A stretch of DNA of 64,000 nt from Dehalococcoidia bacterium (GTDB taxonomy: Bacteria; Chloroflexota; Dehalococcoidia; Lucifugimonadales; UBA3495). Where the stretch lies: NCBI GenBank assembly GCA_965243185.1, contig OZ251531.1, forward strand, positions 72,698 to 136,697, given 5' to 3'. Shown here piece by piece: positions 1-12,750 of the stretch. The translations under genes and the position numbers were made by a program. Under the pieces are notes generated by a model. That model searched no databases. It was not told where the DNA came from and saw nothing but the letters and a program-made list of their open reading frames with translations. Within the stretch, counting starts at the first letter, position 1, and every line of letters starts with the position of its first letter.

Positions 1-959
1 AAAACCGTGGCGACTATTGCCGTGAGATGGTAGTCCAGAAGGGACCAGGATTGGGCCCGGATAAAGGCGAGCAAGGCGGGGAAGTCGGACCAGTCGCCGG
101 TGTAGTAGTAGCCGGCTAAATAGCTGTCCGCGCCCTGGCCGCCGGCTTGCCATTGGTATTGGAGGGTAGTCCAGTAGCTGAGCCAACTGCCGGCGGCAAA
201 GCCCAAGGCGGGGAAGGTCAGCCAGAGGCGCGGCCGGAGCCAATGCCAGAGGGGGCGCAATCGGTTAAGAACAGATGCCGGCGGCGGGTTGGGTTCGGTT
301 ATGGGGTCAAGGCCGCGGCGCCGGGCGAGGAGGGCGGTCAGTAGTACGGCAAGGCTGAACAGAGCCAAGCCGTATTGGAGGAGGGGGGCGAGAAACAGGG
401 CGGCGCTGAGTAAAAGCAGGGCTTTTTTGCTGCCCTGCAAATGGCCGAGCAAGCCGGCAATCAGCAGGGTTGCGAGGAGGGCGTCGAGGGAGTATTCGCG
501 CACATCCCGGGCGTGCTGGACGGCGGCGACGGATACGGTGGAAAGCAGGGCGGCGAGGAAGGCCGCCGGCCGGGGGAAACCGCAGCGGGGGAGCAGAAAG
601 AGCAGGGCGGCTACGGTCAATAAACTGGCTGCCGCCGGCACAATCCGCAGGCTGAGGGCGGAGCTGTCCACCTTTTGTATGGCGTACAGGAACAGGGGAT
701 AGAGAATGGGGGAAGTGTTGCGCTCCCGGGTGTTGGCGAGGGCTTCGGCAAAGCCGCCGGCTACATTGTGGGCGGCGACGGCTTCGTCATACCACAGGGG
801 TTCCGCCGGCAGTTCGTAAAAGCGGAGGGCGGCGGCGATGACCAGCAGGATCAGGGCGGCGGCGTAGTACCAACGGCGGCCCCGGCTGCCGATACGCCAA
901 CAGCGTTCAGCCCAGGTTTTCAGGGGGTGGTCGGGGGCGGCTAGGCGGGATGCGGTCAT
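1..959 (-). CDS. GT-C fold (family 39/PMT-like) membrane glycosyltransferase, 3' end outside window
   Basis: Open frame from ATG at 959 to the window edge (hand-translated: MTASRL...WYYAAALILLVIAAALRFYELPAEPLWYDEA...NTSPILYP...REYSLD). It has the W-x-DE luminal motif and multiple TM stretches, and is a clear paralog of 3358..4002. Absent from the ORF track because it has no stop in the window. Confidence 0.75.
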   Translation of the reverse strand, partial: MTASRLAAPDHPLKTWAERCWRIGSRGRRWYYAAALILLVIAAALRFYELPAEPLWYDEAVAAHNVAGGFAEALANTRERNTSPILYPLFLYAIQKVDSSALSLRIVPAAASLLTVAALLFLLPRCGFPRPAAFLAALLSTVSVAAVQHARDVREYSLDALLATLLIAGLLGHLQGSKKALLLLSAALFLAPLLQYGLALFSLAVLLTALLARRRGLDPITEPNPPPASVLNRLRPLWHWLRPRLWLTFPALGFAAGSWLSYWTTLQYQWQAGGQGADSYLAGYYYTGDWSDFPALLAFIRAQSWSLLDYHLTAIVATV

Positions 960-1029
960 ACTTTTTGCGGCGATTATTGTAGCATAACCGGCTACCGCTA
1001 CGGGGAAAATTCCGCTGTCCACGCCGGTT

Positions 1030-2390
1030 CTTGACCGGGGATGAACTGGCCGGTGCGGAGGGCGGCGATGGGGTAATCGGGCAAGGGAACGGTGGCCAGA
1101 CACTTGCCGTCGAAAATGGCGCCGCGGAGGGGAAAGGCAAAGTCACGGTTAGCGATGCCGTACCGCTGCCGCTCCGGGGGCAAGTCGGACGGGTCGGACG
1201 GTATGATATGCAAGTAGAACCGGGCGGCGGTATCCGGCGGGGCGCAGTATTCCCGGACATAGTGCAGGTTGTTGTTCTGCAAGTAGAGGTCAAAGACGGC
1301 GCGGGCGGCCGGTTCAATGTCGGTCAGAGCGGCATAGGTGGCTTGGTGTTCGGCGGTGCGGTCGAGGGCAACGGTGGTTTCCCAGAGGCGGCCGGAGCCG
1401 GCGTCCTGGCCGGTGATTAAGCCGGCGATGGGGTAGTCGGGCAAGGGGATGGTGGCCAGGCATTTGCCGTCAAAAACGGCGCCGCGCCAGGGAAAGTCAA
1501 AGTCCCGGTTGTCCACGCCGTGCGGCCGCCGTTCCGGCGGCAAATCGGCCGGGTTGGCCGGGATGAGGTGTAGAAAGAAACGGGTTTCAGTATCGGTATC
1601 GGCACAGGATTCCCGGACATAGTGCAGGTTGTTGTTCTGTAAATAGAGGTCAAAGGTGGCTTGGGCGGCCGGTGCAATGCCGGTCAAGGCGGCATAAGTG
1701 GCTTGGTGTTCGGCGGTGCGGTCAAGGGGGAAAGCGGTTTGCCACAGCCGGTTGCCGGCGTCGGATTGGCCGGTGATTAGGCCGGCGATGGGGTAGTCGG
1801 GCATAGGCATCAAGGCTAAACACTTGCCGTCAAAATGCGCTCCTTGCCGGGCAAAGTCAAAATCCTGATTGTCCACCCCATAGGGCTGCTGCGCCGGGGG
1901 CAAGTCGGCGGGGTCGGCAGGCAGCAAGTGGAGAAAGAAGCGGGTTGCGGTGTCGGAGGGGGCGCACGGTTCTTTGACATAGTGGAGGGCGTGGTTGTGG
2001 AGGTAGAGGTCAAAGACGGCGGGGGCAACGGGTGCAGTGCCGGCCAAGGCTGCTGCGGCCGACCGGTAGAGGGCGGGGCGGTCAACCGGGATGGTAGTGG
2101 ACCAAGGGCGTCCCCCGTCTTGGGAGGACTGGCCGGTGCGGATGGCGGCGATGGGGTATTCGGGCAGGGTGATGGCCGCCAGACATTTGCCGTCGAACAG
2201 CTTATTGTATATGCCGAAGGTGAGGACGGAGCTTTCCCGCTCCCGCCCTTGAGACAAAGTGTCCGGGAAAGCGGGGATAATCTCCAGGAAAAACCCGGTT
2301 ACATTATCGCCCGGTAAGCACGGTTCCTTGAGGTAATACAAGGTGTTTTCCCGGCGGTACAAGTCGAGGTTGAGATAGAGGTCAAATTCG
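1030..2390 (-). repeat. four tandem ~360-bp (120-aa) intragenic domain repeats
   Basis: The cacttgccgtc(g/a)aa motif recurs at about 1101, 1461, 1821 and 2183. Protein unit: FDLYL..N.LHYV.E.C....T..RF.LH..P...DLP.....G..N.DF.F...GA.FDGKCLA..PLPDYPIA...TGQ. Confidence 0.9.
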
Positions 2391-3366
2391 CCGGGGGCGT
2401 CCGGTTCCCGGGCCCGGAGGGAGTGGTAGGTTGCCGGCAATTCCCGGGGGATTTGCGCGGAAAGCCGCCAGAGTTGGTGGCCGCCGCTGACCAGCTGCTC
2501 AATGTAACCGTGCCGGCTGGACTTCACTAATTGCCATAATGATACTTGGTAGGCCGCCGTGTTGTCGCCGCCGACTACGAGGTAAAGACGGCCGCCTTTT
2601 TGTCCCAAATCGGACAGCAGCGCCAGTAAGCCGTCCACGCTCGCGACATAGTCTTGGGTGCAGCCGTAGCGGTAATTATCCCGTTTCCCCTGATAAAACT
2701 CCATCGTCACCGATTCCCAGTGGGGGATGCACACCAAATCCGCAGCCTGCGCCTGCTGTTCCAGAAGGGCGATAATTTCCTTGATAGTAGAATAATCCGC
2801 ATAGGGGTTTTTCTGTTGCAGGGCTGCTATGCCACTTAAAGCGGCCAGGGCGGCCAAGCCAGTTAGCAAAGCGGGCCGCAGTTCCGGGCGGCGGGATAAG
2901 GCCGCCAGTCGGGACGCGGCCCAAGCCAGGGCCACGCCGGCGGTCAGGAACACGATCGGCCCCAAGTAAAGGGATTGGCGGCTGCCGCCCAAGGGGTACA
3001 GTTGGAGCAGGGCGGCGCCGGCGGCTAGAGCCAGGGCGGTCAGGAAAAGCAGAATTACCGGGTCAAGCCAGCGCCGCTGCCTTGCTGCCAATAGCAACAT
3101 TCCCAAAGTTATCAGGGTTAATAGCAGTACCGGGGCCGGCAGGTGGTAGTTCAGCATATACCAGATGCGGGTGGCGGCGAAAGAAAGGAGGGCAAGGGGG
3201 TCGAGGCCGCCGCTGTAGTATTGGGCGGCCAAGTAACTATCGGCGGCAAAGCCGCCGCCGGGAGACTGATGGCGCAGGGTCAGGAAGTAGCTGCTGAGGC
3301 TGCCGGTTAGAAACAAGGCTACCGGGCCAGCCAAATCCAACTGTCGTTTCAGCCAACCTAAAAGTC

Positions 3367-3386
3367 GGGGGGGGGGGGGGGGGGGG
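3367..3386 (+). repeat. G20 homopolymer (C20 on coding strand)
   Basis: 20 consecutive G, counted directly, at the frameshift point. Confidence 0.95.
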
Positions 3387-3998
3387 TATGATTGGAATGT
3401 CCGACCAGCAGCGCGGTCAGCAGGATGGCACTGCCGAACAAGACCAGTCCGTATTGGGTCAGTGGTGCCAGCAGTAAAGCTGCTCCCAACAAGGCTTTGC
3501 GTCCTGCCCGCAGATACCAGAGCAAGCCGGCAATCAGCAGTACCGCCACCAAGGTGTCAATGGAGTATTCCCGGGCGAATTGGGCGTACTCGACGGCGGC
3601 TGTGGAGAGGGTGGCTAATAGGGCCGCCAGCAAGACCGCCGGCCGGCTTACGCCCAGTCGCGGCAGCAGAAAGAGGATGGCCGCAACGGTGAGGACGCTG
3701 GCGGTGGCCGGCACAACGCGGATACTGAAGGCGGAGCTCTCCACTTGCTGAATAATCCAAGAGAGCAGCGGATACAGGAGGGGCGAGGCGTTGTTGCCGC
3801 GGGTGTTGCGGATAACTTCGGCAAGGGAGCCGCGGGAGTTAAAAGCAGCGTCCGCTTCGTCGGCGTAGATGGTGTTGCCCGCCAAGTCGTGAAAGCGCAG
3901 GGCGGCGGCGATGAGCAGCAGGATGGCGGCGGCCAAATAGTACCAGGGGATTTTGGCGGCTGGCGCGCGCAATGGGGATAGGGTTGGGATTAGGGAGT

Positions 3999-5120
3999 TC
4001 AAGACAACTCCCGCAGGGCGGCCATCAGGCGTTGGCAGTCGGGCATTGGGCGGATGCCGATGCGGAGGCAGTCGGGCAAGCCGAAGGAGGCGCAGTCCCG
4101 GAGGAATAAGCCTTGCCGCATTAGTTGTTCACAGAGGGCGGCGGCATTGCCTACGGATACCAGGAGGAAGTTGGCGGCGGCGGGGAATACGGTGTAGCCC
4201 AAGGCGGTCAGTTCAGCGGTCAGATAAGTTTTGGCGGCGGCAACGGCGGCGCGGGCTTGGGGGAGATAGTCGGGGTCGGCGAGGGCTACTTGGCCGGCAA
4301 CTTGGGCCAGGGCGTTGACGCTCCAGTCGGGCTGGAGAGTCGCTAAACGGGCAGTGATTTTCGGGGATGCCAGGGAATAGCCGAGGCGGAGGCCGGTTAA
4401 GGCGTAGTCTTTGGTCATCGAGCGGAGGATGACCAGAGAATCGGCTATCCCGCAATTTTCGTCAAGCAAAGGACAGGCATCCCAAGGGTCGGCAACAAAG
4501 CTGATATAGGCTTCATCCAGGACCAGGAGGCTGCCGGTTTGGGCGGCGGCTTGGGCTAGAGTTAGCACTTCCTTTTGGCTCAGGTAAATGCCGGTGGGGT
4601 TGTTGGGGTTGCAGAGGAAAATCAGGGCGGGCCGGCGGGCTTGGATGAGGGCGGCGGCTTGTTCCAAATCCCAGGAAAAGGCTTGGTCGCGCCGGGCGTC
4701 GTGGGTGAACAGTCCCGCGCCGGCTAAAGCGCACGCGCCGGCATATTCGCCATAGGTGGGAGTGAGGATAAGGGCGGCGCTGCGGACGCCGGGCCGGGGC
4801 GGCGACAGGTAAGCGCGGGTCAAGAGGTGAATCAGTTCGGTGGAGCCGTTGCCGACGCGGATGGATGCGAGGGGCGCGCCGGTGCGGCGGCGGAGGGCTT
4901 CGCGGAGTTCGAGACATTCCGGGTCGGGGTAGGCGGTCAAGTCAACGGCTTGCAGGGCGGGCCACAGGGCCGGCGGCGGGCCGAGGGGGCTGACGCTGGC
5001 GGAGAAATCCAGAGCGTCCGCCGGGTTCAAGCCCAAGGCGCGCAGTTGGGCCGGGCGGATGCCGCCGTGAATCGGGCGGGACGGCATTGCGGCGGTGGTA
5101 GGAGTATCTTGATTGCTCAC
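3999..5120 (-). CDS. cobD: L-threonine-O-3-phosphate decarboxylase (PLP class I/II)
   Basis: HGG N-terminal motif, GNGSTELI, LCNPNNPTG, DEAY and RSMTKDYALTGLRLGY (PLP Lys), in cob operon context. Start taken at GTG 5120 overlapping the cbiB stop (GTGA); ATG 5087 is an alternative. Confidence 0.85.
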   Translation of the reverse strand: MSNQDTPTTAAMPSRPIHGGIRPAQLRALGLNPADALDFSASVSPLGPPPALWPALQAVDLTAYPDPECLELREALRRRTGAPLASIRVGNGSTELIHLLTRAYLSPPRPGVRSAALILTPTYGEYAGACALAGAGLFTHDARRDQAFSWDLEQAAALIQARRPALIFLCNPNNPTGIYLSQKEVLTLAQAAAQTGSLLVLDEAYISFVADPWDACPLLDENCGIADSLVILRSMTKDYALTGLRLGYSLASPKITARLATLQPDWSVNALAQVAGQVALADPDYLPQARAAVAAAKTYLTAELTALGYTVFPAAANFLLVSVGNAAALCEQLMRQGLFLRDCASFGLPDCLRIGIRPMPDCQRLMAALRELS

Positions 5121-6082
5121 GGCATTATTCCGTAACGGAGGAAAGTTAGGGCCAAGGCGGCTATTAAGCCGAGGGCGGCGGCCAAGTACATTGCTTGGAT
5201 GGCGCGGGTGATGTCTTGGGTTGACAGGGGGCGGTTGGCGTCGCCCAGGATGTAGTGGCCGGTTTTTTCCAGTTGGATGCCTAACGCGCCGGCCATGGCG
5301 CTCATGGGCCAGCCGGCGTTGGGGCTGGCGGTGCGGGAATGGTCGCGGGACATTATACGCCAAGCACCGCGGAAATGCTGTCCCGGGAGGAGGGCGCTGC
5401 CCAACAGCAGGAAAAGCGCCGTCAAACGGGCGGGAATCAGGTTCAGCAGGTCGTCCAAGCGGGCGGACGCTTTGCCGAGGTATTCATATTCGCCGCGATA
5501 GCCAATCATACTATCCAGAGTATTGATGGCGCGGTAGGCGAAGGCGCCGGGCAAGCCAAAGAGGGCGAATGCCAACCAGGGGCCGATAAAGCTGTCGGAG
5601 CTGTTTTCGGCTACGGATTCGACGGTGGCGGCGATGGCTTGGGCCGGGGTCAGCGCAGCTGCGTCGCGACTGACTAGGGACCGCAGATTATCCCGCGCGC
5701 CGGCCAGGTCATCAGCGTTGAGGAGGGAGCGGATGCGGGCGGCGGCCCGGTGCAGCATCCCCAAGGCAAAGGTGGTTTTGAGCAATACCGCGCCGCCGAT
5801 AATGTATGCCAAATCCCCCCAAGGGTGCAAGGCGTCGAGGTAGCGCAGTCCCCAAGCGGCCAGGATGGCGGCGGCCGCCCAGAAAGCCGGGATGGACAAA
5901 GCCAGCAGTCCGCCGTAAGCCAGTTGCGGACGGCCGCGCCGCCGGGGGGCGAGGTTTTGCAGGAGGGTTATGGTCTTGCCCATCCAGACGGTGGGATGGA
6001 GGCGGGCCGGCAGTTCGCGGGCGGCCAGGTCGAGGAGGACGGCCAGCAGGAGGAGGAGGGCGTCGGGGGGGAACCCGGGCAT
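5117..6082 (-). CDS. cbiB: adenosylcobinamide-phosphate synthase
   Basis: HPTVWMG, LVSRD, ESVAENSSD, YRAINTLDSMIGY, ARLDDLLNLIPARL and SPNAGWP motifs. Confidence 0.95.
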   Translation of the reverse strand: MPGFPPDALLLLLAVLLDLAARELPARLHPTVWMGKTITLLQNLAPRRRGRPQLAYGGLLALSIPAFWAAAAILAAWGLRYLDALHPWGDLAYIIGGAVLLKTTFALGMLHRAAARIRSLLNADDLAGARDNLRSLVSRDAAALTPAQAIAATVESVAENSSDSFIGPWLAFALFGLPGAFAYRAINTLDSMIGYRGEYEYLGKASARLDDLLNLIPARLTALFLLLGSALLPGQHFRGAWRIMSRDHSRTASPNAGWPMSAMAGALGIQLEKTGHYILGDANRPLSTQDITRAIQAMYLAAALGLIAALALTFLRYGIMP

Positions 6083-6113
6083 AGTCGTAAATGTGGCGGC
6101 GTATGGGCGGGAG

Positions 6114-6521
6114 TTAGCCCGCGGCTTTCCGCTGATGGAACGTACTAATTAGTTTCTGTCCGGCCGGGATGTCAAAGACCTGAGTCAGCAGCATACTGGT
6201 GGCTTCGGCTTTGGTGAGCTTGCTGGGCATCCGGATACCCAGCGCGGTGCCAAGTTGACGGATGGAATCTACTTTAAGGGAACCCAACTCTGCTTCCGCT
6301 TCGCTACGCTCCAAGCTCGAGAAACGGGTGGACAAATCCTCAGACAGTTCCACCGTGGAGGGTTTCCCAGACTTTTCGGCGACTTTCTTATGGGGTTGAG
6401 CCTGCGCCAAGGTTTGGCTGAGTTCGAGCAAAGACAGCTCGGGAAAAGCGCGCAAAGCCTGGGCCGCGCTCTCCAAGGCTGCGGCCAACTCGTGGGAAGT
6501 TCGGATGTCGTTGGTAGCCAT
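6114..6521 (-). CDS. hypothetical protein; C-terminus resembles a Rho-N/HeH-like small helical domain
   Basis: 135-aa ORF from ATG 6521 with atypical codon usage. LKVDSIRQLGTALGIRMPSKLTKAE resembles the L+v.eLr.lak.lgi...sklkK.eL pattern (inference). Confidence 0.55.
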   Translation of the reverse strand: MATNDIRTSHELAAALESAAQALRAFPELSLLELSQTLAQAQPHKKVAEKSGKPSTVELSEDLSTRFSSLERSEAEAELGSLKVDSIRQLGTALGIRMPSKLTKAEATSMLLTQVFDIPAGQKLISTFHQRKAAG

Positions 6522-6531
6522 GCTCAAGCTC

Positions 6532-6918
6532 CTACTGGGACTGGATGACCTTGTCATCACTACACTCGCCCGACGCCAGACGACCAGCTAATCGCCGATA
6601 ATGGCTTTCAACGGCGCCCCAACTATTTGCCGCCTGATTCGCAGACAGTGCCGCATAATCCACTCCCTCCGCTTTCGGACGCGCCGTAGTATGCTGCAAC
6701 AGCCAAGCATCTGCCGCCGCTTTCCTCTCCGCCGAAAACTTCGCCGCCTCCTCCGGCCCATCTTGGGCCGCTATCTCTTTAACTTGGTCGATTTCCCATT
6801 GCAGGATGTAATCCCCCCACTTCGGATCCTCAGCGGCCGCTTGTGCTATAGGGGGTGGCGTTACACCGCCAATGCCACAGCCGAGTTCCTCTCGATTGTG
6901 GGGTGCGGTCTCACTCAT
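6532..6918 (-). CDS. hypothetical protein
   Basis: 128-aa ORF from ATG 6918 (MSETAPHNREE…) filling the gap between cobS and the next gene; no family recognised. Confidence 0.5.
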   Translation of the reverse strand: MSETAPHNREELGCGIGGVTPPPIAQAAAEDPKWGDYILQWEIDQVKEIAAQDGPEEAAKFSAERKAAADAWLLQHTTARPKAEGVDYAALSANQAANSWGAVESHYRRLAGRLASGECSDDKVIQSQ

Positions 6919-7010
6919 AACGGTTACTCCTTGAATCCCACGCTGGACAGGATAATAACCGATGGGGTTAAGAATAGCAATCGGCAGCGGTTGTTTCAAG
7001 GGCGTAAAGG

Positions 7011-7802
7011 TCAAAACCCGATAAGTCCGACATTGAAAGCCGCCGCCAACAACCCATACGGCAGCATTGCTACGGCGGCAATCAGGATGACTACTTCGGC
7101 GGTTTCGTTGGCGGCGCCGTAGCAGTCGCCGGTTAGGCCGTCGAGCAGACGGGATATTGCTTTGCCCATCAGCCAGGCCAAGGCCGATATGCCGGTTAGC
7201 AGGATTAGGCCGCCGTAGCCGCCGAGGATCAGGGCGGCGGTGGTTGCTATTATCGCCGCTACGGTGGTGGCTATCTTGCTACTACCTTGGTGGAAGGGGG
7301 CGCCTAGTCCCTGGCTGCGGGCGTAAGGGAAGGATGCCAGGAGCAGGGTCATGGTCCAGCGGGAAAGGGTCGGGAAAAGCAGCAAGACTATTTCCTTGCC
7401 GGGCGCATTCAGGGAGAGGAGGGATAACAAGGCGGCGTATTTGAGCAGCAGGATGCCGGCGGCGCCGGCTACGGCAAAAGCGCCGACATGGGAATCCCGC
7501 ATAATTTCCCGCCGCCGCTGGGGGGTGTAGCCGCCAAAGATGCCATCGCAGACATCCATAAATCCGTCGAGGTGGAGGCCGCGGGTAAGGGCAATGAGCA
7601 GGACGGTCAGCAGGGCGGCGGTGAGATAGACGGGAAAGATTTCCCGCACGCCGCGCTCGACGCCCAACAGCAACAAGCCCAACAGCAAGCCGACCAGGGG
7701 AAACCAGGCCCGGGAGGCGCTGAGGGCTTGCGGACTGAACCCGCCGGGCCAACGTGCCGGCAGAAAGGTTAAAAAACTGACGGCGGCCAGAAATGACGCC
7801 AA
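7011..7802 (-). CDS. cobS: adenosylcobinamide-GDP ribazoletransferase (cobalamin synthase)
   Basis: FLTFLP, WFPLVG, TRGLHLDGFMDVCDG, IMRDSHVGAFA and GLTGDCYGAANE motifs. Start placed at TTG 7802, which has AAGGA upstream. Confidence 0.93.
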   Translation of the reverse strand: MASFLAAVSFLTFLPARWPGGFSPQALSASRAWFPLVGLLLGLLLLGVERGVREIFPVYLTAALLTVLLIALTRGLHLDGFMDVCDGIFGGYTPQRRREIMRDSHVGAFAVAGAAGILLLKYAALLSLLSLNAPGKEIVLLLFPTLSRWTMTLLLASFPYARSQGLGAPFHQGSSKIATTVAAIIATTAALILGGYGGLILLTGISALAWLMGKAISRLLDGLTGDCYGAANETAEVVILIAAVAMLPYGLLAAAFNVGLIGF

Positions 7803-7842
7803 ATTTTCGTCCTTGATTACCGGAGGGAATCGGGGTTGGAGG

Positions 7843-8910
7843 CTAATCGTCCCGGTCGGAGACGCCGGCTTCGGCAAAGGTTGCCATTCCGGACAGGCAG
7901 CGGGCAGCGGCGTCAATCAGAGGCATGGCCAAGGCCGCGCCGGTGCCTTCACCGAGGCGCATTCCCAAGTCGAGGAGCGGGGTCAGTTCCATTGCAGCCA
8001 AGCCGATGCGATGGCCCGGTTCTGCCGATTGGTGGGCGGCGATGAAGTAATCCCGGGCGGCCGGGGCGATGCGCCAAGCGATGAGGGCGGCGGCTCCGGA
8101 GATGAAACCGTCCACTACCACCGGGCGGCGGGCGGCGGCGGTTCCCAACATTGCCCCGGCTAGTGCGCCGATTTCCAACCCGCCTACTTTGGTCAGCACA
8201 TCCAGTCCGTCATTGGGGTCGGGATTGTTGACGGACAAGGCCCGTTGGATTACCGCGATTTTGCGGGCCAAGCCGGGGTCGTCAAGGCCGGTGCCGCGGC
8301 CGGTAACGGCGGCCGGGTCGGTGCCGGTGATGGCGGCGGTGATGGCGCTGGCGGCGGTGGTGTTGCCGATGCCCATATCGCCGCAGGCAATGAGGTCGGC
8401 GCCGGCGGCGATCTGCTCTTGGGCGGCGGCGATGCCGATTTCCAAGCAGCGGGCGGCTTGCTCCCGGGTCATTGCGGGGCCGGCGGCCATATTTGCCGTG
8501 CCATAGGCTACTTTGACGGAGCGCAGCAAGGGATGGGGTGCCAAGTCGGCGGCGACGCCGGCGTCGAGGATGACGATTTCGGCGCCGGCGTGGCGGGACA
8601 GGACATTGATAGCAGCGCCGCCATTCAGGAAGTTGGCGACCATTTGGGGGGTAACTTCCTGGGGGTAGGCGCTGACGCCTTCGGCGACGACGCCGTGGTC
8701 GCCGGCGGCGAGGATGACGGCTTTGCGGCGGATTTGCGGGGTGGGTTCGCCAAAGATGCCGGCCAGCATTACCGACAAATCCTCGAGGCGGCCGAGACTG
8801 CCGGGGGGCTTGGTTAGAGTGTCCTGGCGGGCGCGGGCGGCGTCCATAGCCGCGGCATCGCGGGGGGCAATGCTTTGTACGGTGCGGTCAAGCAGGGGAG
8901 AGAGGGTCAT
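7843..8910 (-). CDS. cobT: nicotinate-nucleotide--dimethylbenzimidazole phosphoribosyltransferase
   Basis: LTKPPGSLGRLE, AGDHGV, VSAYPQEVT, GDMGIGNTT and LDLGMRLGEGTGA motifs. Confidence 0.96.
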   Translation of the reverse strand: MTLSPLLDRTVQSIAPRDAAAMDAARARQDTLTKPPGSLGRLEDLSVMLAGIFGEPTPQIRRKAVILAAGDHGVVAEGVSAYPQEVTPQMVANFLNGGAAINVLSRHAGAEIVILDAGVAADLAPHPLLRSVKVAYGTANMAAGPAMTREQAARCLEIGIAAAQEQIAAGADLIACGDMGIGNTTAASAITAAITGTDPAAVTGRGTGLDDPGLARKIAVIQRALSVNNPDPNDGLDVLTKVGGLEIGALAGAMLGTAAARRPVVVDGFISGAAALIAWRIAPAARDYFIAAHQSAEPGHRIGLAAMELTPLLDLGMRLGEGTGAALAMPLIDAAARCLSGMATFAEAGVSDRDD

Positions 8911-8933
8911 AATAGGGCCTCCGGTAATAATGG

Positions 8934-9443
8934 CTAATTGGTCGCTGGGCGTGCGGCCCGCAAGGCTTGTTGGTAGAGGCGGGCGCTGATGCGGAACTCG
9001 GCTTGTCGCAGATGGTCCAGGTCGGCTTGCAGGGTGTCTATTATGCCATCCCGGGCGGCTTGAGTCAGGATGCCGACAACGCCGGTCAGGGTAAGGTTAT
9101 ATTCCATAGCCCGGCGGCGGCCTTTCGCCTCGTCGATTATCAAAAGCGCCGCTTGATTGGACAAAGCCAGGGTAATGGCTTCGGCCTCGCCCGCTCCCAA
9201 GCCCGCTCCGGCCACGGCGACTAAATGCCGGTCGACGGTGTCAGCTACCCGGAGCCAACCGGCGGCGGCCGCAGCAGCTACTTCTGGAGAGCCGGCTTTG
9301 TCCGCCCCGCTTTCCACTACTTCCTGCCAAACTGCCGGGGGGATCCAAACTTCGCTGTAAAACTCGCGCAGCAGTTCCAGATGCCCCACGACGGAAAGGC
9401 CGACCAGCGGGGAAGCGTTGCTAACGACGGGGCCGGGCGGCAT
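8934..9443 (-). CDS. DUF3368 family PIN-like protein (putative toxin, COG2405)
   Basis: VVSNASPL, VWIPPAVWQE, LGAGEAEAITLA, LLIIDEAKGRRRA and TGVVGIL pattern. Confidence 0.85.
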   Translation of the reverse strand: MPPGPVVSNASPLVGLSVVGHLELLREFYSEVWIPPAVWQEVVESGADKAGSPEVAAAAAAGWLRVADTVDRHLVAVAGAGLGAGEAEAITLALSNQAALLIIDEAKGRRRAMEYNLTLTGVVGILTQAARDGIIDTLQADLDHLRQAEFRISARLYQQALRAARPATN

Positions 9444-9945
9444 TACGCATATCCTCCTCCAAGTCTGACACGGAGTATTGCAGGACGATGTCCCGTTCGC
9501 CCCGCAAATCGTGGAAATCCCACCAACTCCATCCGGCGAATTTGCGGAGGGGGCCGGAATTGAGAATCCACTGTTCGTACAAGTCCAGGGCCAGTTCCTG
9601 GCGGAGTTGCGGCAGTAGCTGCTCCGGGGGCAGGGCCAAGGCGGCTTGCACTTCCGCGGGGATTTTGAGGGAAAGGCTACCTTTGGGGTGGCACTGGCCG
9701 GATTGGCCGCCGGGTTCCCGGTCGAGGAATTCCTCGGTTTCCCGGACGCGGGTGCGTTCCTGGAGCAGGGCGTTGAATTCGGGCAAGGGCAAGCCGGCGA
9801 AGGATGCGGCTACGGCGCAGGAAAGGCGGCCCTGTTCGCACAGGGCGCAAGCCAGTTCCCGGCGCAGCAGTTCCTCAGCCTCGACCGGGGGCAAGCCCAA
9901 GTTGTAGAGGAGGTTCTCGGTTATTTCCAGTTCTACCGGCGTCAT
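9421..9945 (-). CDS. UPF0175 family protein with two tandem UPF0175 domains (putative antitoxin)
   Basis: Two repeats of LR.ELA..L.EQ..L....A...AG......F..L..ER; overlaps the DUF3368 gene. Confidence 0.75.
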   Translation of the reverse strand: MTPVELEITENLLYNLGLPPVEAEELLRRELACALCEQGRLSCAVAASFAGLPLPEFNALLQERTRVRETEEFLDREPGGQSGQCHPKGSLSLKIPAEVQAALALPPEQLLPQLRQELALDLYEQWILNSGPLRKFAGWSWWDFHDLRGERDIVLQYSVSDLEEDMRNAARPRR

Positions 9946-10017
9946 TGCTCACTCCTTTGCCGGGGATGGCTGGTTGGGGTTGGGCTACGGATAGATGGCG
10001 GCCGCCGGCTGTCCCCG

Positions 10018-10590
10018 CTAGAACTCGATACCGGGCTGGGCTTTGATGCCCTGCTGGTAGGGGTGTTTGACGACCTGCATTTCGGTTACGAGGTCGGCGT
10101 AGTCCACCAATTGCTGCGGGGCGTGGCGGCCGGTGATGATGATGTGCAGCATTTCGGGGCGGCTTTGCAGGGCGGCGATTACTTCGTCGACGGGAATCCA
10201 GCCGTAGTGCAGGGGGTAGGTGAACTCGTCGAGAACTACCAGGTCGTGGTCACCAGCGGCGATAACCTCTTTGGCGTCCTCCCACAGGGCGCGGGCGAGG
10301 TCGGCGCTCTGTTCCAAATCCCGGGAGCGCCAGGTAAAGCCGTCGCCCATAGCGCGCATAGTGACGCCGATTTTCTGGGCGGCGCGCTGTTCGCCGAAGT
10401 TGGCGGTGGTGTGCTTGATGAACTGGAGCATAATCACCCGGAGGTCGCGGCCCCAAGCGCGGAACAGGACGCCCATGGCGGCGGTGGTTTTGCCCTTGCC
10501 GTTGCCGGTGTTGACGATGACCAGTCCTTTGTTGATGCGGGGGCCTTTGACGGACTGCGGCCCCGCTTGGTCGGCTTGTTCGGTAGTCAT
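10018..10590 (-). CDS. cobO: cob(I)yrinic acid a,c-diamide adenosyltransferase
   Basis: VNTGNGKGKTTAAMG, QFIK, LVVLDE, ITGR and ADLVTEM..VKHP motifs. Confidence 0.96.
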   Translation of the reverse strand: MTTEQADQAGPQSVKGPRINKGLVIVNTGNGKGKTTAAMGVLFRAWGRDLRVIMLQFIKHTTANFGEQRAAQKIGVTMRAMGDGFTWRSRDLEQSADLARALWEDAKEVIAAGDHDLVVLDEFTYPLHYGWIPVDEVIAALQSRPEMLHIIITGRHAPQQLVDYADLVTEMQVVKHPYQQGIKAQPGIEF

Positions 10591-10640
10591 ACTGGCTTAC
10601 CCTCGAGCTGGATTGGGGAATTATCCCTTTTGGGATTTAA

Positions 10641-12002
10641 CTATAACACGGCGCAGGTGTCCACGAACTTTTGGGCCAAGCCGGGGGCGCTGCCGAGGTG
10701 GATGTGGATGTAGGATGCCCACAGGCTGCCGATGTGGAAACCCTCGGGGCGGTTATCTTGATTCACTACCCGGTAGAGGGCGGTTTCCGGGGTAGGCGGC
10801 TCCGCCAATACGGACCAGTGGAATTCGTGGCCGCGGACTTGCTGACCGGGCTGCAACAGCGGCGTGGCGTGGGCGGCGGCTACCTCGCGATAGCCCAGGG
10901 TCAGCCGGCGGTGGGACATTGAGGATACCACCGGCAAGGCGCCGACCATGGGATAGTTGTTGCCGTCCAGGTCGGAAAGGCTTTGGCCCAGATACATCAG
11001 GCCGCCGCATTCGGCATAGACCGGGATTTGGCGTTGGACGGCGGTGCGCAGGGATGCCAGCATGGGGCGGTTGGCGGCGAGTTCGGCGGCAAAGAGTTCG
11101 GGGAAGCCGCCGCCGATATAGACGCCGCCGGCAGCCGGGGGCAAAGCGGAGTCGGTCAAGGGGCTGAAAGGCAAAAGTTCCGCGCCCCAAGCTTGCAGCA
11201 AGTCGAGGGAATCCTGATAGTAGAAGCTGAAGGCTTTATCCTGGGCTACGGCGATGCGGGCGCGGGGGGACTGCGGTTCAGCCGGATAGACTTGGGGCTT
11301 TCCGGCCGGGGGATTGGCGGTGGCGGCTAGTTTCAGTATTTGATCCAGGTCAATAGTTTCCGCAACTTGGGCGGTCAAGTCATCGTACCACTGGCGTACT
11401 ACGGTGCCTTCGACGGTGGGAATCAAGCCGAGGTGCCGCTCCGGCTGGTTGAAAGCGTCTTTGCGGGGGAGGTAGCCCAAGACCGGCAAGCCGGTGGTGG
11501 TTTCAATCTGGGGTTGGCAAAAGTCGAGGTGGCGGGGGCCGCCGATGCCGTTGAGGATGACGCCGGCAATTCGCAGGGCGGGGTCGAATTTTTGGTAGCC
11601 AAGGATTTCGGCGGCGACGCTGCGGGCAACCTTGGCGGCGTCGGCGACCAGGATAACCGGGGCGTTGAGGAGTTTGGCTAACTGGGCGGTGGAGCCTTCC
11701 TCGGAGAGGGCGTCGTGGCCGTCATAGAGGCCCATCACGCCCTCGATGACGGCGATTTTTTCGGAGCCGACGGCGCGGCGGAACAGTTCGGTCACGGTGG
11801 GCGGCGGCAGCAGCCAGGTATCCAAGTTGCGGGAAGGGACGCCGCAAGCCAGTTGGTGATAGGAGGGGTCGATGTAGTCGGGGCCGGCCTTGAAGGGCTG
11901 GACGGCATAGCCGCGGCGGGTCAGCGCGCCCATTAGGCCGGTGGCGATGGTGGTTTTGCCGACGCCGCTGCGGACGCCGGCGATTACGATGGCGGCGGTC
12001 AT
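10641..12002 (-). CDS. cbiA: cobyrinate a,c-diamide synthase
   Basis: SGVGKTT, FKAGPDYIDP, NLD.W, EGVMGLYDG, ERHLGL, GGGFPE, AECGGLMYL and GHEFH (glutamine amidotransferase) motifs. Confidence 0.96.
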   Translation of the reverse strand: MTAAIVIAGVRSGVGKTTIATGLMGALTRRGYAVQPFKAGPDYIDPSYHQLACGVPSRNLDTWLLPPPTVTELFRRAVGSEKIAVIEGVMGLYDGHDALSEEGSTAQLAKLLNAPVILVADAAKVARSVAAEILGYQKFDPALRIAGVILNGIGGPRHLDFCQPQIETTTGLPVLGYLPRKDAFNQPERHLGLIPTVEGTVVRQWYDDLTAQVAETIDLDQILKLAATANPPAGKPQVYPAEPQSPRARIAVAQDKAFSFYYQDSLDLLQAWGAELLPFSPLTDSALPPAAGGVYIGGGFPELFAAELAANRPMLASLRTAVQRQIPVYAECGGLMYLGQSLSDLDGNNYPMVGALPVVSSMSHRRLTLGYREVAAAHATPLLQPGQQVRGHEFHWSVLAEPPTPETALYRVVNQDNRPEGFHIGSLWASYIHIHLGSAPGLAQKFVDTCAVL

Positions 12003-12127
12003 GGGGCGGCTCCGGGGATGGGCTGTAACATTTTGATTATTCCTCCGGGGTTTGCCGGCTTGGTCAGTCGGTTTGCTACTTATTATGCAACGGAGGGGCG
12101 GATAATGCTACCCGGTGCGGCTATTTC

Positions 12128-12197
12128 CGTCTTTCCTGTGAAAACGGGAATCCAGAGTCCCCGGTTTTCCTGGATTCCCACTTTCGTGGGAATGACG
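12128..12197. repeat. inverted doublet of CGTC-type REP palindromes
   Basis: CGTCTTTCCTGTGAAAACGGGAATCCAG (12128-12155) faces the reverse complement of CGTCATTCCCACGAAAGTGGGAATCCAG (12170-12197). The same unit occurs at 37235, 37356 (one mismatch) and 39063. Confidence 0.8.
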
Positions 12198-12452
12198 GTT
12201 GCGATATGCGATACCCTTCGCGGGAAAGACGGTTTCGATGCGATAGCCTTGGGTATGGGATGGATTGTGGGGATGAGCGAAAGAGGGCCGGGCGGGCTAC
12301 CCGCCGCAGCGGGCCGCGCCGTTCGGCAGCGCAGTGGAGGAGGTACTGCGCCGCCGGGAAAGCGCGGGCCGCCCGGCCGTCTCTCGGGAAGGAGTCCAAC
12401 GGCGGCTGCCATTGGACGGGATGATTGCGGACGGGGACGCGGCGGGAAGGGC

Positions 12453-12483
12453 AAAGAAAAAGCCTGACTTTCCCGGTCAGGCT
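12453..12483 (-). terminator. intrinsic terminator, probable riboswitch expression platform
   Basis: Minus strand AGCCTGAC-CGGGAAA-GTCAGGCT followed by TTTTCTTT, about 55 nt downstream of the aptamer. Confidence 0.75.
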
Positions 12484-12537
12484 GGATCCAGTCAAGAGAC
12501 TAATACACCTTGCCGCGAAGCGTATTCCGTCAAGTTC

Positions 12538-12750
12538 CCAGGCAGGTCTCCTGGCTTCTGGCTGCTGACGAACCCGCTCGGCCTTCCCGGCCCGGCAATT
12601 GTTGGGGCCAGTGGCTTGTTTCCGCACGGCGGAATTGAGGGGGTTCTCGCCAGTCACAGTGGCGCGACCACGCCGGATTTACACCGGCTTCCCTTTTCAG
12701 CCCCGGATTTCATTGCAGTGGATAATGCCGGGGCCACCTGGGGACTTTGG
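12538..12750 (-). promoter_or_regulatory. cobalamin (AdoCbl) riboswitch
   Basis: Minus strand AGGT…AAAAGGGAAGCCGGTGTAAATCCGGCGTGGTCGCGCCACTGTGA…GCCACTGG…GGGAAGG…AGCCAGGAGACCTGCC (B12 box), upstream of cbiA. Confidence 0.95.

Follow-up and report, generated by a model that had tools for sequence, protein, structure and literature searches.

Repeat-driven on/off switching of surface molecules is textbook biology of a few host-adapted pathogens. In Campylobacter jejuni, the poly-G genes for lipooligosaccharide, capsule and flagellar glycosylation contain intragenic G/C runs that toggle glycosyltransferases by slippage, and in Helicobacter pylori (futA, futB, futC) and Neisseria (lgtA, lgtC, lgtG and the pgl genes) a poly-C or poly-G run within the open reading frame (ORF) of a glycosyltransferase likewise sets the frame, resulting in a variable surface glycan. 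Here, we describe a locus of this design in a Dehalococcoidia bacterium (GenBank assembly GCA_965243185.1, contig OZ251531.1), namely a gene for a predicted GT-C (ArnT/PMT-like) membrane glycosyltransferase that is split by a run of 20 cytosines (C20). It lies in a window of 64,000 nt, i.e., the whole stretch of DNA that was analysed, which corresponds to positions 72698–136697 of a source genome assembled as a single contig of 3.37 Mb with 61% G+C. Our reading, to which we assign a probability of about 0.7, is that C20 is a slipped-strand contingency (phase-variable) switch and that the assembled allele is OFF.

Homopolymer-controlled glycosyltransferase genes have been described in Campylobacter, Helicobacter and Neisseria (PMC2823697, PMC3315296), and 29 tract-associated coding regions are listed for Helicobacter canadensis (PMC2823697). 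The source genome resembles the C. jejuni-type systems in that tens of tracts occur per genome, most family copies are OFF and some tracts sit at 3′ ends, where they alter the C-terminus. It differs from them in tract length (12–28 nt, and at least 31 and at least 37 nt in relatives, versus 8–13 nt), in mismatch repair (MutS and MutL are not known from those genera, whereas the source lineage has both) and in the type of enzyme and bearer (GT-C in uncultured sponge-associated Dehalococcoidia versus GT-A/GT-B in animal pathogens). The H. pylori and Neisseria enzymes are soluble or peripheral and use nucleotide sugars; phylum, ecology and tract length also set these systems apart, and their switching has been measured, whereas here it is predicted from the sequence.

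Other known systems share single features with the locus. In the gtrABC clusters of Salmonella and its phages, GtrC is likewise a polytopic, phase-variable GT-C enzyme that decorates a surface polymer, but their switching acts epigenetically, through Dam and OxyR at the promoter, and involves no repeat tract, and the split gene has no adjacent gtrA or gtrB. As in phasevarions (PMC5909438, PMC7383803), the source genome has long tracts at three methylase genes; yet these are located upstream or at the 3′ end rather than in the 5′ coding region, as in mod and hsdS, and they concern other members of the tract set, not the split gene. With ArnT, PMT and other GT-C enzymes (5F15, 9I5K, 6S7T, 6GXC), the product would share the membrane fold, an acidic motif in the first loop and a weak, sub-threshold match to PMT_2, while an array of four beta-rich repeats of ~120 aa at its C-terminus and the lack of any sequence-level match in the PDB distinguish it from them.

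Full-text literature searches for Chloroflexota, Dehalococcoidia and sponge symbionts turned up no such loci; a preliminary description of this DNA had presented them as not known to be described in Chloroflexota. What the locus adds is the same switch design in an uncultured, mismatch-repair-proficient lineage that is also found in sequencing runs labelled sponge metagenome, with tracts two to three times the usual length that strike a membrane glycosyltransferase family of metagenome-assembled genomes (MAGs) labelled as many phyla. If the switching is real, symbiont cells would differ randomly in surface glycans, envelope proteins and DNA methylation, which bears on their possible escape from phages and from phagocytosis by the host. 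It also matters for annotation, in which a tract-split gene shows up either as a pair of ORFs or as a pseudogene.

A poly-C tract between two reading frames

On the + strand of the window, a run of 20 guanines at 3367–3386, flanked by AAAAGTC and TATGATT, corresponds to C20 on the minus coding strand, and it is the sole G/C run of 10 nt or more in the 64 kb. The ORF entering the tract (3358..4002) encodes 214 aa and terminates 9 nt beyond it (C-terminal end ...GHSNHTPPPPPPDF / ...LLVGHSNHTPPPPPPDF, followed by the stop), while the ORF leaving it (998..3340, 780 aa) lies in a different frame, which is open backwards across the tract as ...YPPPPPPRLLGWLKRQLDLAG... and runs for 795 codons with zero stops. 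Adding one C to C20 or removing two fuses both parts into a single product of 1001–1002 codons and, when lengths from 16 to 24 were scanned, a stop-free frame of 1042–1044 codons was obtained at C18, C21 and C24 only, versus 805–852 codons at the other lengths. Both halves of the fused protein are covered by its alignment with the product of a tandem paralogue (42% identity over 790 aa, E 9e-135) that begins 39 nt beyond the stop of the split gene and features, at the tract position, a loop without any homopolymer (DPITEPNPPPAS). The preliminary description had placed C20 exactly between two ORFs that jointly match the paralogue at 1..959, had proposed that C21 or C18 restores a frame of ~1000 aa, and had pointed to a non-homopolymeric linker in the paralogue; all of this is borne out. 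A promoter reading of the G20–TATGAT arrangement on the + strand was discarded, as a consensus scan gave nothing there.

Read as a contingency switch, C20 would be a hypermutable homopolymer in a disordered loop tolerant of any number of prolines, which slipped-strand mispairing during replication would lengthen or shorten in small steps of one to a few nucleotides. One length in three (18, 21 or 24) would yield the full enzyme of ~1000 aa (ON), while the others would lead to the stop 9 nt past the run and leave a 214-aa stump deprived of most of the membrane domain and of the soluble repeats (OFF), the assembled C20 being in this latter state. The locus shows much of what is expected of such a switch, since the repeat is of hypermutable length, lies within an ORF and would toggle between a full-length and a truncated product by non-triplet changes, and since its length varies between conserved flanks: 20 in the reference and in public run X1, 19 in run X2 and at least 37 in an orthologue on an ENA scaffold (see below). 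The split gene itself was seen out of frame only, and both states were encountered at the family level (2 ON and 4 OFF in one set of genomes, 7 full-length genes and 19 fragments in another, plus OFF copies at C10 and C12). With about 20 such switches in the source genome, cells would come to differ randomly in surface-modifying enzymes, envelope proteins and DNA methylases, which presupposes a useful rate of slippage, the modification of a surface molecule and a selection for variation (e.g., by phages or by the sponge host). Two side effects may be expected: with at least seven consecutive prolines, even the ON form would depend on EF-P, and in the OFF state 2.3 kb of untranslated mRNA could lower the expression of the tandem paralogue by polarity.

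Length and state of the tract in public data

Thirteen public runs contain parts of the stretch, four of them labelled sponge metagenome, and all were available as Logan contigs; hence, the tract lengths reported below for runs X1 to X5 come from independent k-mer assemblies, which give no length distribution. The X1 contig crosses the tract with G20 and that of X2, from the same sample, with G19, while the contigs of X3, X4 and X5 terminate within it. Neither 18 nor 21 was found in the contigs of these five runs, and only the OFF lengths 19 and 20 were seen in runs coming from at least four samples. In a 111-nt stretch around the tract, many of the 31-mers of the contigs accumulate in the tract itself. 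We conclude that the tract is real and about 19–20 nt long in these samples, its exact state being uncertain by about one base because contigs yield no length distribution.

The most immediate alternative is a miscalled length: the true tract would be C21 or C18, an intact gene would encode a poly-proline linker, and assembly or consensus would have created a frameshift devoid of regulatory meaning. Runs of 20 nt are a classic site of indel errors, X1 and X2 do differ by one base, the reference carries elsewhere a 2-nt insertion found in none of the four runs compared, and a 2:1 excess of out-of-frame tracts is also what random miscalls would produce. Yet the lengths obtained from two separate k-mer assemblies, 20 and 19, are both out of frame; a second split GT-C gene (genome position 3237510) has C20 in X1 and X2 alike; six of the seven long intragenic tracts of the genome are out of frame; in homologues, the frame is already broken at C10 and C12, tracts short enough for a consensus to be seldom wrong; and orthologous tracts lie 7–13 nt apart between species, so that their length changes in nature and a run of 20 nt would be mutable anyway. 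We thus regard a miscall as an unlikely explanation. The preliminary description had rated a sequencing error as equally plausible as switching, a balance that no longer holds, except that the length may be off by about one base; nor did the contigs all give C18 or C21, which it had named as the mark of an assembly error, as they read 20 or 19 or break in the tract.

Two technical scenarios were dismissed. A reference ridden with errors is at odds with the zero indels found when 20 kb of the window was compared with four runs, and with the single private 2-nt insertion observed in a separate stretch of 8.6 kb. A general one-base deficit of X2 is contradicted by its agreement with the reference at the C20 tract of the second split gene and at a C18 tract, X2 being one base short at C19. 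As for the private insertion (ctgCGaacg, genome position 1517528, i.e., L017:1729), it frameshifts the C-terminus of paralogue A of an envelope family, is absent at full depth in X1, X2, X3 and X5, and leaves, once removed, a frame that fits the paralogues. Either the assembly is wrong here, or the assembled strain has a mutation of its own.

Tracts in orthologues, related genomes and the source genome

In a genome of the same genus (G001), the orthologue of the split gene (83% identity) is one intact frame of 1051 codons with the loop TGRDGDSGPTTAQSKQPAAYPT and no homopolymer. Six full-length metagenome orthologues (72–85% identity), one of which is near-identical to that of G001, are also in frame and have a tract-free loop of 22 aa. 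By contrast, an orthologue on an ENA scaffold (86% identity) reads ...SRQSSNT followed by at least C37 and then an assembly gap at the exact site of the tract, within the same gene order as in the source genome (CobD_Cbib, Aminotran_1_2 and two glycosyltransferases) and behind a left flank (CAGTCCAGTAATA) related to that of the source genome (CATTCCAATCATA). Judging from these sequences, the tract allele replaced an ancestral 22-aa loop, and it is common to at least two lineages, at very different lengths. On whether it arose once or repeatedly, the protein tree of nine orthologues is an unsupported star.

These orthologues also bear on a recoding scenario, in which the DNA stays out of frame and RNA-polymerase slippage or ribosomal frameshifting on the CCC run supplies some full-length product, making C20 a dimmer and not a heritable switch. 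Bacterial transcriptional slippage at long homopolymers can indeed rescue frameshifted genes (PMC5009743; see PMC4256274 for a poly-A example), and a run of 20 nt exceeds the RNA–DNA hybrid, which would make realignment physically possible. On the other hand, orthologues would be expected to preserve a recoding site together with its frame offset, but the six metagenome orthologues are in frame and without tract, the tracts of the family are found in all frames, and the wide variation of tract lengths between the source genome and G001 fits mutation better than a tuned signal. Documented cases, moreover, mostly involve A/T runs. Recoding in place of switching is therefore quite improbable, even if the two can coexist.

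A third possibility is a gene on its way out, i.e., a fixed loss-of-function frameshift that struck one member of a redundant set of eight or more paralogues, with the tract as its mere site. The genome does hold eight paralogues of the glycosyltransferase, and none of the data contain an ON allele, the only lengths observed in the runs being those given above. However, the downstream frame has kept its 795 codons free of stops and, at a synonymous divergence (dS) of ~0.3 from the G001 orthologue, the ratio of nonsynonymous to synonymous substitution rates (dN/dS) amounts to 0.26 for the N-terminal part and to 0.36 for the C-terminal part. Both halves are thus under purifying selection in an otherwise intact gene, and the value of 0.36 downstream of the tract argues that the out-of-frame part has not long been adrift. 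In addition, a homopolymer of 20 nt can by its very nature regain the frame it has lost, and the same loop bears tracts in many genomes in both states. Decay is, in our view, the least credible of the alternatives considered.

Several points nevertheless weigh against a contingency switch. Six of the eight close orthologues examined lack the tract (the G001 gene being near-identical to one of the six), so that a switch is not required for the function of the gene. Intact MutS and MutL should damp slippage. The difference between X1 and X2 (20 versus 19 in one sample) could stem from slippage during library preparation. Length calls in a 20-nt homopolymer are the least reliable of all, with long and short reads alike, so that a one-base error may underlie the OFF state; an in-frame allele (18, 21 or 24) of the split gene is found in none of the data sets. 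Finally, it is the predicted fold alone that suggests the substrate of the enzyme and its role at the surface.

The contingency reading of the preliminary description gains, in turn, from the genome-wide tract set and from the lengths found in relatives (10–21 and at least 37). An invariant length with no long tract in relatives, which would have spoken against it, is not what we observed, given the orthologue with at least C37 and distant homologues with C10 to C21. Within the family and order of the source genome, 28 of 41 genomes have C runs of 12 nt or more, a lower bound owing to a technical bias, as the tract-free genomes are mostly fragmented; both genomes of the same genus carry a similar load. 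Those without such runs mostly consist of more than 30 contigs, and nearly all assemblies of 20 contigs or fewer bear tracts. Short-read MAGs probably break at long runs, so that surveys relying on such assemblies would overlook the phenomenon, which may be largely invisible outside long-read assemblies. When 19 tracts of G001 were placed on the source genome, the lengths of orthologous tracts (source genome/G001) were 23/16, 18/31, 28/17, 21/12, 15/13 and 14/14, with flanks of 92–97% identity. A loss of mismatch repair as the cause of the tracts was ruled out, since MutS_I is present in 40 and MutL_C in all 41 of these genomes, including the source genome, where both are intact. At genome position 402338 (L023:439), just past the C18 in the leader of a binding-protein gene, X3 and X5 show a minority GG insertion that equals the G001 allele (gacttttggGGtctgg), from which it follows that strain variants coexist in the samples.

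In the source genome itself, 155 runs of C7 and 7 of C8 are followed by a separate tail of lengths reaching 28 nt. In total, 56 G/C runs are at least 9 nt long, of which 21 measure 12–28 nt and about 35 measure 9–11 nt, and no A/T run exceeds 8 nt in the whole 3.37 Mb. The tract set is enriched in envelope and DNA-methylase genes (Table 1), and six of the seven intragenic tracts of the envelope genes are out of frame; a four-member unannotated envelope family shares the C-terminal repeat of the split gene. Surface-modifying genes and DNA methylases are the usual content of phasomes in pathogens, and the tracts at three methylase genes fit this composition, for which examples have been published (PMC2823697, PMC5909438).

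Table 1. Features of the split gene (window coordinates) and long tracts elsewhere in the source genome (genome coordinates).
Feature	Position	Strand	Description
Poly-C tract	3367..3386	−	C20 on the coding strand; codes for the run of prolines and determines the frame
N-terminal ORF, 214 aa, TTG start	3358..4002	−	First transmembrane helix (TM1), first loop, about five more helices
C-terminal reading frame	998..3366	−	First start codon at 3340, stop at 998–1000; remaining transmembrane helices and soluble part
Junction peptide predicted for the fused full-length product			HSNHTPPPPPPPRLLGWLK
Asp48-Glu49 (YADEAD), candidate catalytic acidic motif	3856..3861	−	First loop after TM1; from homologue alignment
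Four tandem repeats of ~120 aa	1001..2386	−	Predicted beta-rich; no Pfam family
Intact tandem paralogue, start part	1..959	−	858-codon frame, ATG at 959, continues past the window start
Second PMT_2-type glycosyltransferase, split	genome 3237510		C20 (also in X1 and X2); ON at 19 or 22
GT-C paralogue	genome 1859114		C21, eight codons past the ATG
Four-member unannotated envelope family	genome 1516475, 1518254, 1523600, 1925292		C15 in frame; C19, C26 and C21 out of frame
Polysacc_synt_3 flippase	genome 2692238		C23 in the 5′ leader
Periplasmic substrate-binding protein	genome 402314		C18
SulP transporter	genome 1467103		C14
Methylases (two N6_N4, one N6)	genome 484154, 2101220, 2147222		N6_N4: C28 upstream of one, C17 at the 3′ end of the other; N6: C14 at the 3′ end
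DndB-like gene	genome 944099		Long tract

A more far-reaching idea is that the poly-C tracts represent a transferable or actively generated switch element common to the sponge symbiont community, which would mean gene conversion or a horizontal spread of cassettes, or else a sequence-directed seeding and extension of C runs. The facts that bring it to mind are a loop motif, TA-C(n)-GACT(Y)TT, common to Dehalococcoidia of several genera and to a MAG labelled Entotheonella (within one GT-C family), the presence in the source genome of a tract with an AT-rich left flank in place of the ancestral 22-aa loop, a GACTTT(T) right flank shared by non-coding tracts of unrelated genes, and a G directly following the tract in ~87% of cases across families. 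At present, we deem this idea doubtful.

The flanks of the tracts have a recurrent composition. The base following the C tract is G at 29 of 33 tracts in the source genome and G001, and at 17 of 20 in three other genomes (G025, G032 and G035). In the source genus, GAC comes directly after 12 of 33 tracts (1.2% in the control), GACTTT(T) recurs at unrelated loci, and the 7 nt preceding the long tracts are AT-rich and often TATAGT-like.

The encoded enzyme, its family and its neighbours

Taken alone, the N-terminal fragment scores 24.1 bits against the Pfam family PMT_2 (PF13231), below the cut-off of 26.1, which is passed by the tandem paralogue (27.7 bits) and by the second split gene (32.3 bits); PF13231 is also present on several clusters of homologues. 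Across 61 aligned homologues, D48 is conserved in at least 90% and E49 in all. The AlphaFold model of an 85%-identical orthologue (P0003) has a mean predicted local distance difference test score (pLDDT) of 86.4, and its sole internal segment of low confidence (below 57) consists of residues 200–218, i.e., the tract-equivalent loop between helices 184–199 and 219–229. The loop is thus predicted to be disordered, and a poly-proline insert of variable length should be tolerated there according to the model. The best fold matches of this model in the PDB are ArnT, Pmt4, STT3, PglB, EmbA/B, ALG12 and DPY19, each with a probability of 1.00, along with ALG9, all of them GT-C glycosyltransferases, and Foldseek comparisons with 5F15, 9I5K, 6S7T and 6GXC yielded E-values of 1e-6 to 1e-5 and a target-normalised TM-score of 0.5; a search of the PDB with the family profile matched zero chains, the fold search alone giving matches. 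The membrane domain being modelled with a GT-C fold, the product is probably an ArnT/PMT-like glycosyltransferase that would use a polyprenyl-phosphate-linked sugar donor at the outer face of the membrane.

The repeats of the soluble part follow the consensus FDLYL...YV.E.C...FFLH..P...DLP...G..N.DF.F...G..FDGKC.A..PLPDYPIA...TGQ, with two conserved Cys. Nearly every envelope gene of the genome that bears a tract, including those at 3237510, 1859114, 1518254, 1523600 and 1925292, has between one and four copies of this module at its C-terminal end.

Beyond close relatives, the glycosyltransferase family was recovered from MAGs labelled Dehalococcoidia, Caldilineaceae, Latescibacteria, Entotheonella, Gammaproteobacteria, Nitrospirales, Gemmatimonadota and others. 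In five further genomes, including one with the label Entotheonella, C13 to C21 directly follows the QYGLxLF helix that precedes the loop; two of these copies are in frame, and four are not. When the 214-aa fragment was used as a query, 60 ORFs representing N-terminal fragments were retrieved from other assemblies; among the 48 with the helix motif, 29 end on at least three prolines and 19 on at least four, while at least four prolines occur at the loop in 7 of 106 full-length homologues. Two fragments located on contigs with hifiasm-style names are those frameshifted at C12 and C10. OFF copies exceed ON copies by ~2.7:1, close to the 2:1 expected from a random tract length, but this excess alone is not decisive, as random miscalls would yield the same ratio.

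In about ten distant homologues (L082, L083, L085, L091, L092, L095, L112, L113, L127 and L133), a poly-G run abuts a −10-like element (...CAGAACAT..GTAC-G(9-13)-TAT(T/A)TC...) some 15–85 nt upstream of the match to the glycosyltransferase, an arrangement that suggests a second type of switch in the family, acting at the promoter level through the length of the spacer.

Upstream of the split gene, the neighbouring genes (window 3999–12002, minus strand) resemble cobalamin salvage, both by sequence and by the Pfam labels of their counterparts on the ENA scaffold. The row adjoins the glycosyltransferase pair and comprises ORFs similar to a threonine-phosphate decarboxylase-like aminotransferase, CobD/CbiB, CobS, CobT, CobO and CobB/CbiA. 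An operon tie to a sugar-donor pathway was not found, and the genes upstream therefore provide no pathway context for the donor. Immediately beyond, at 12007–12673, contig depth is 30-fold that of the flanks in all runs (1368 versus ~45 in X1), and the G-rich variable repeats of this segment, which looks like a multi-copy G-rich repeat element, are joined through k-mers to the G20 tract.

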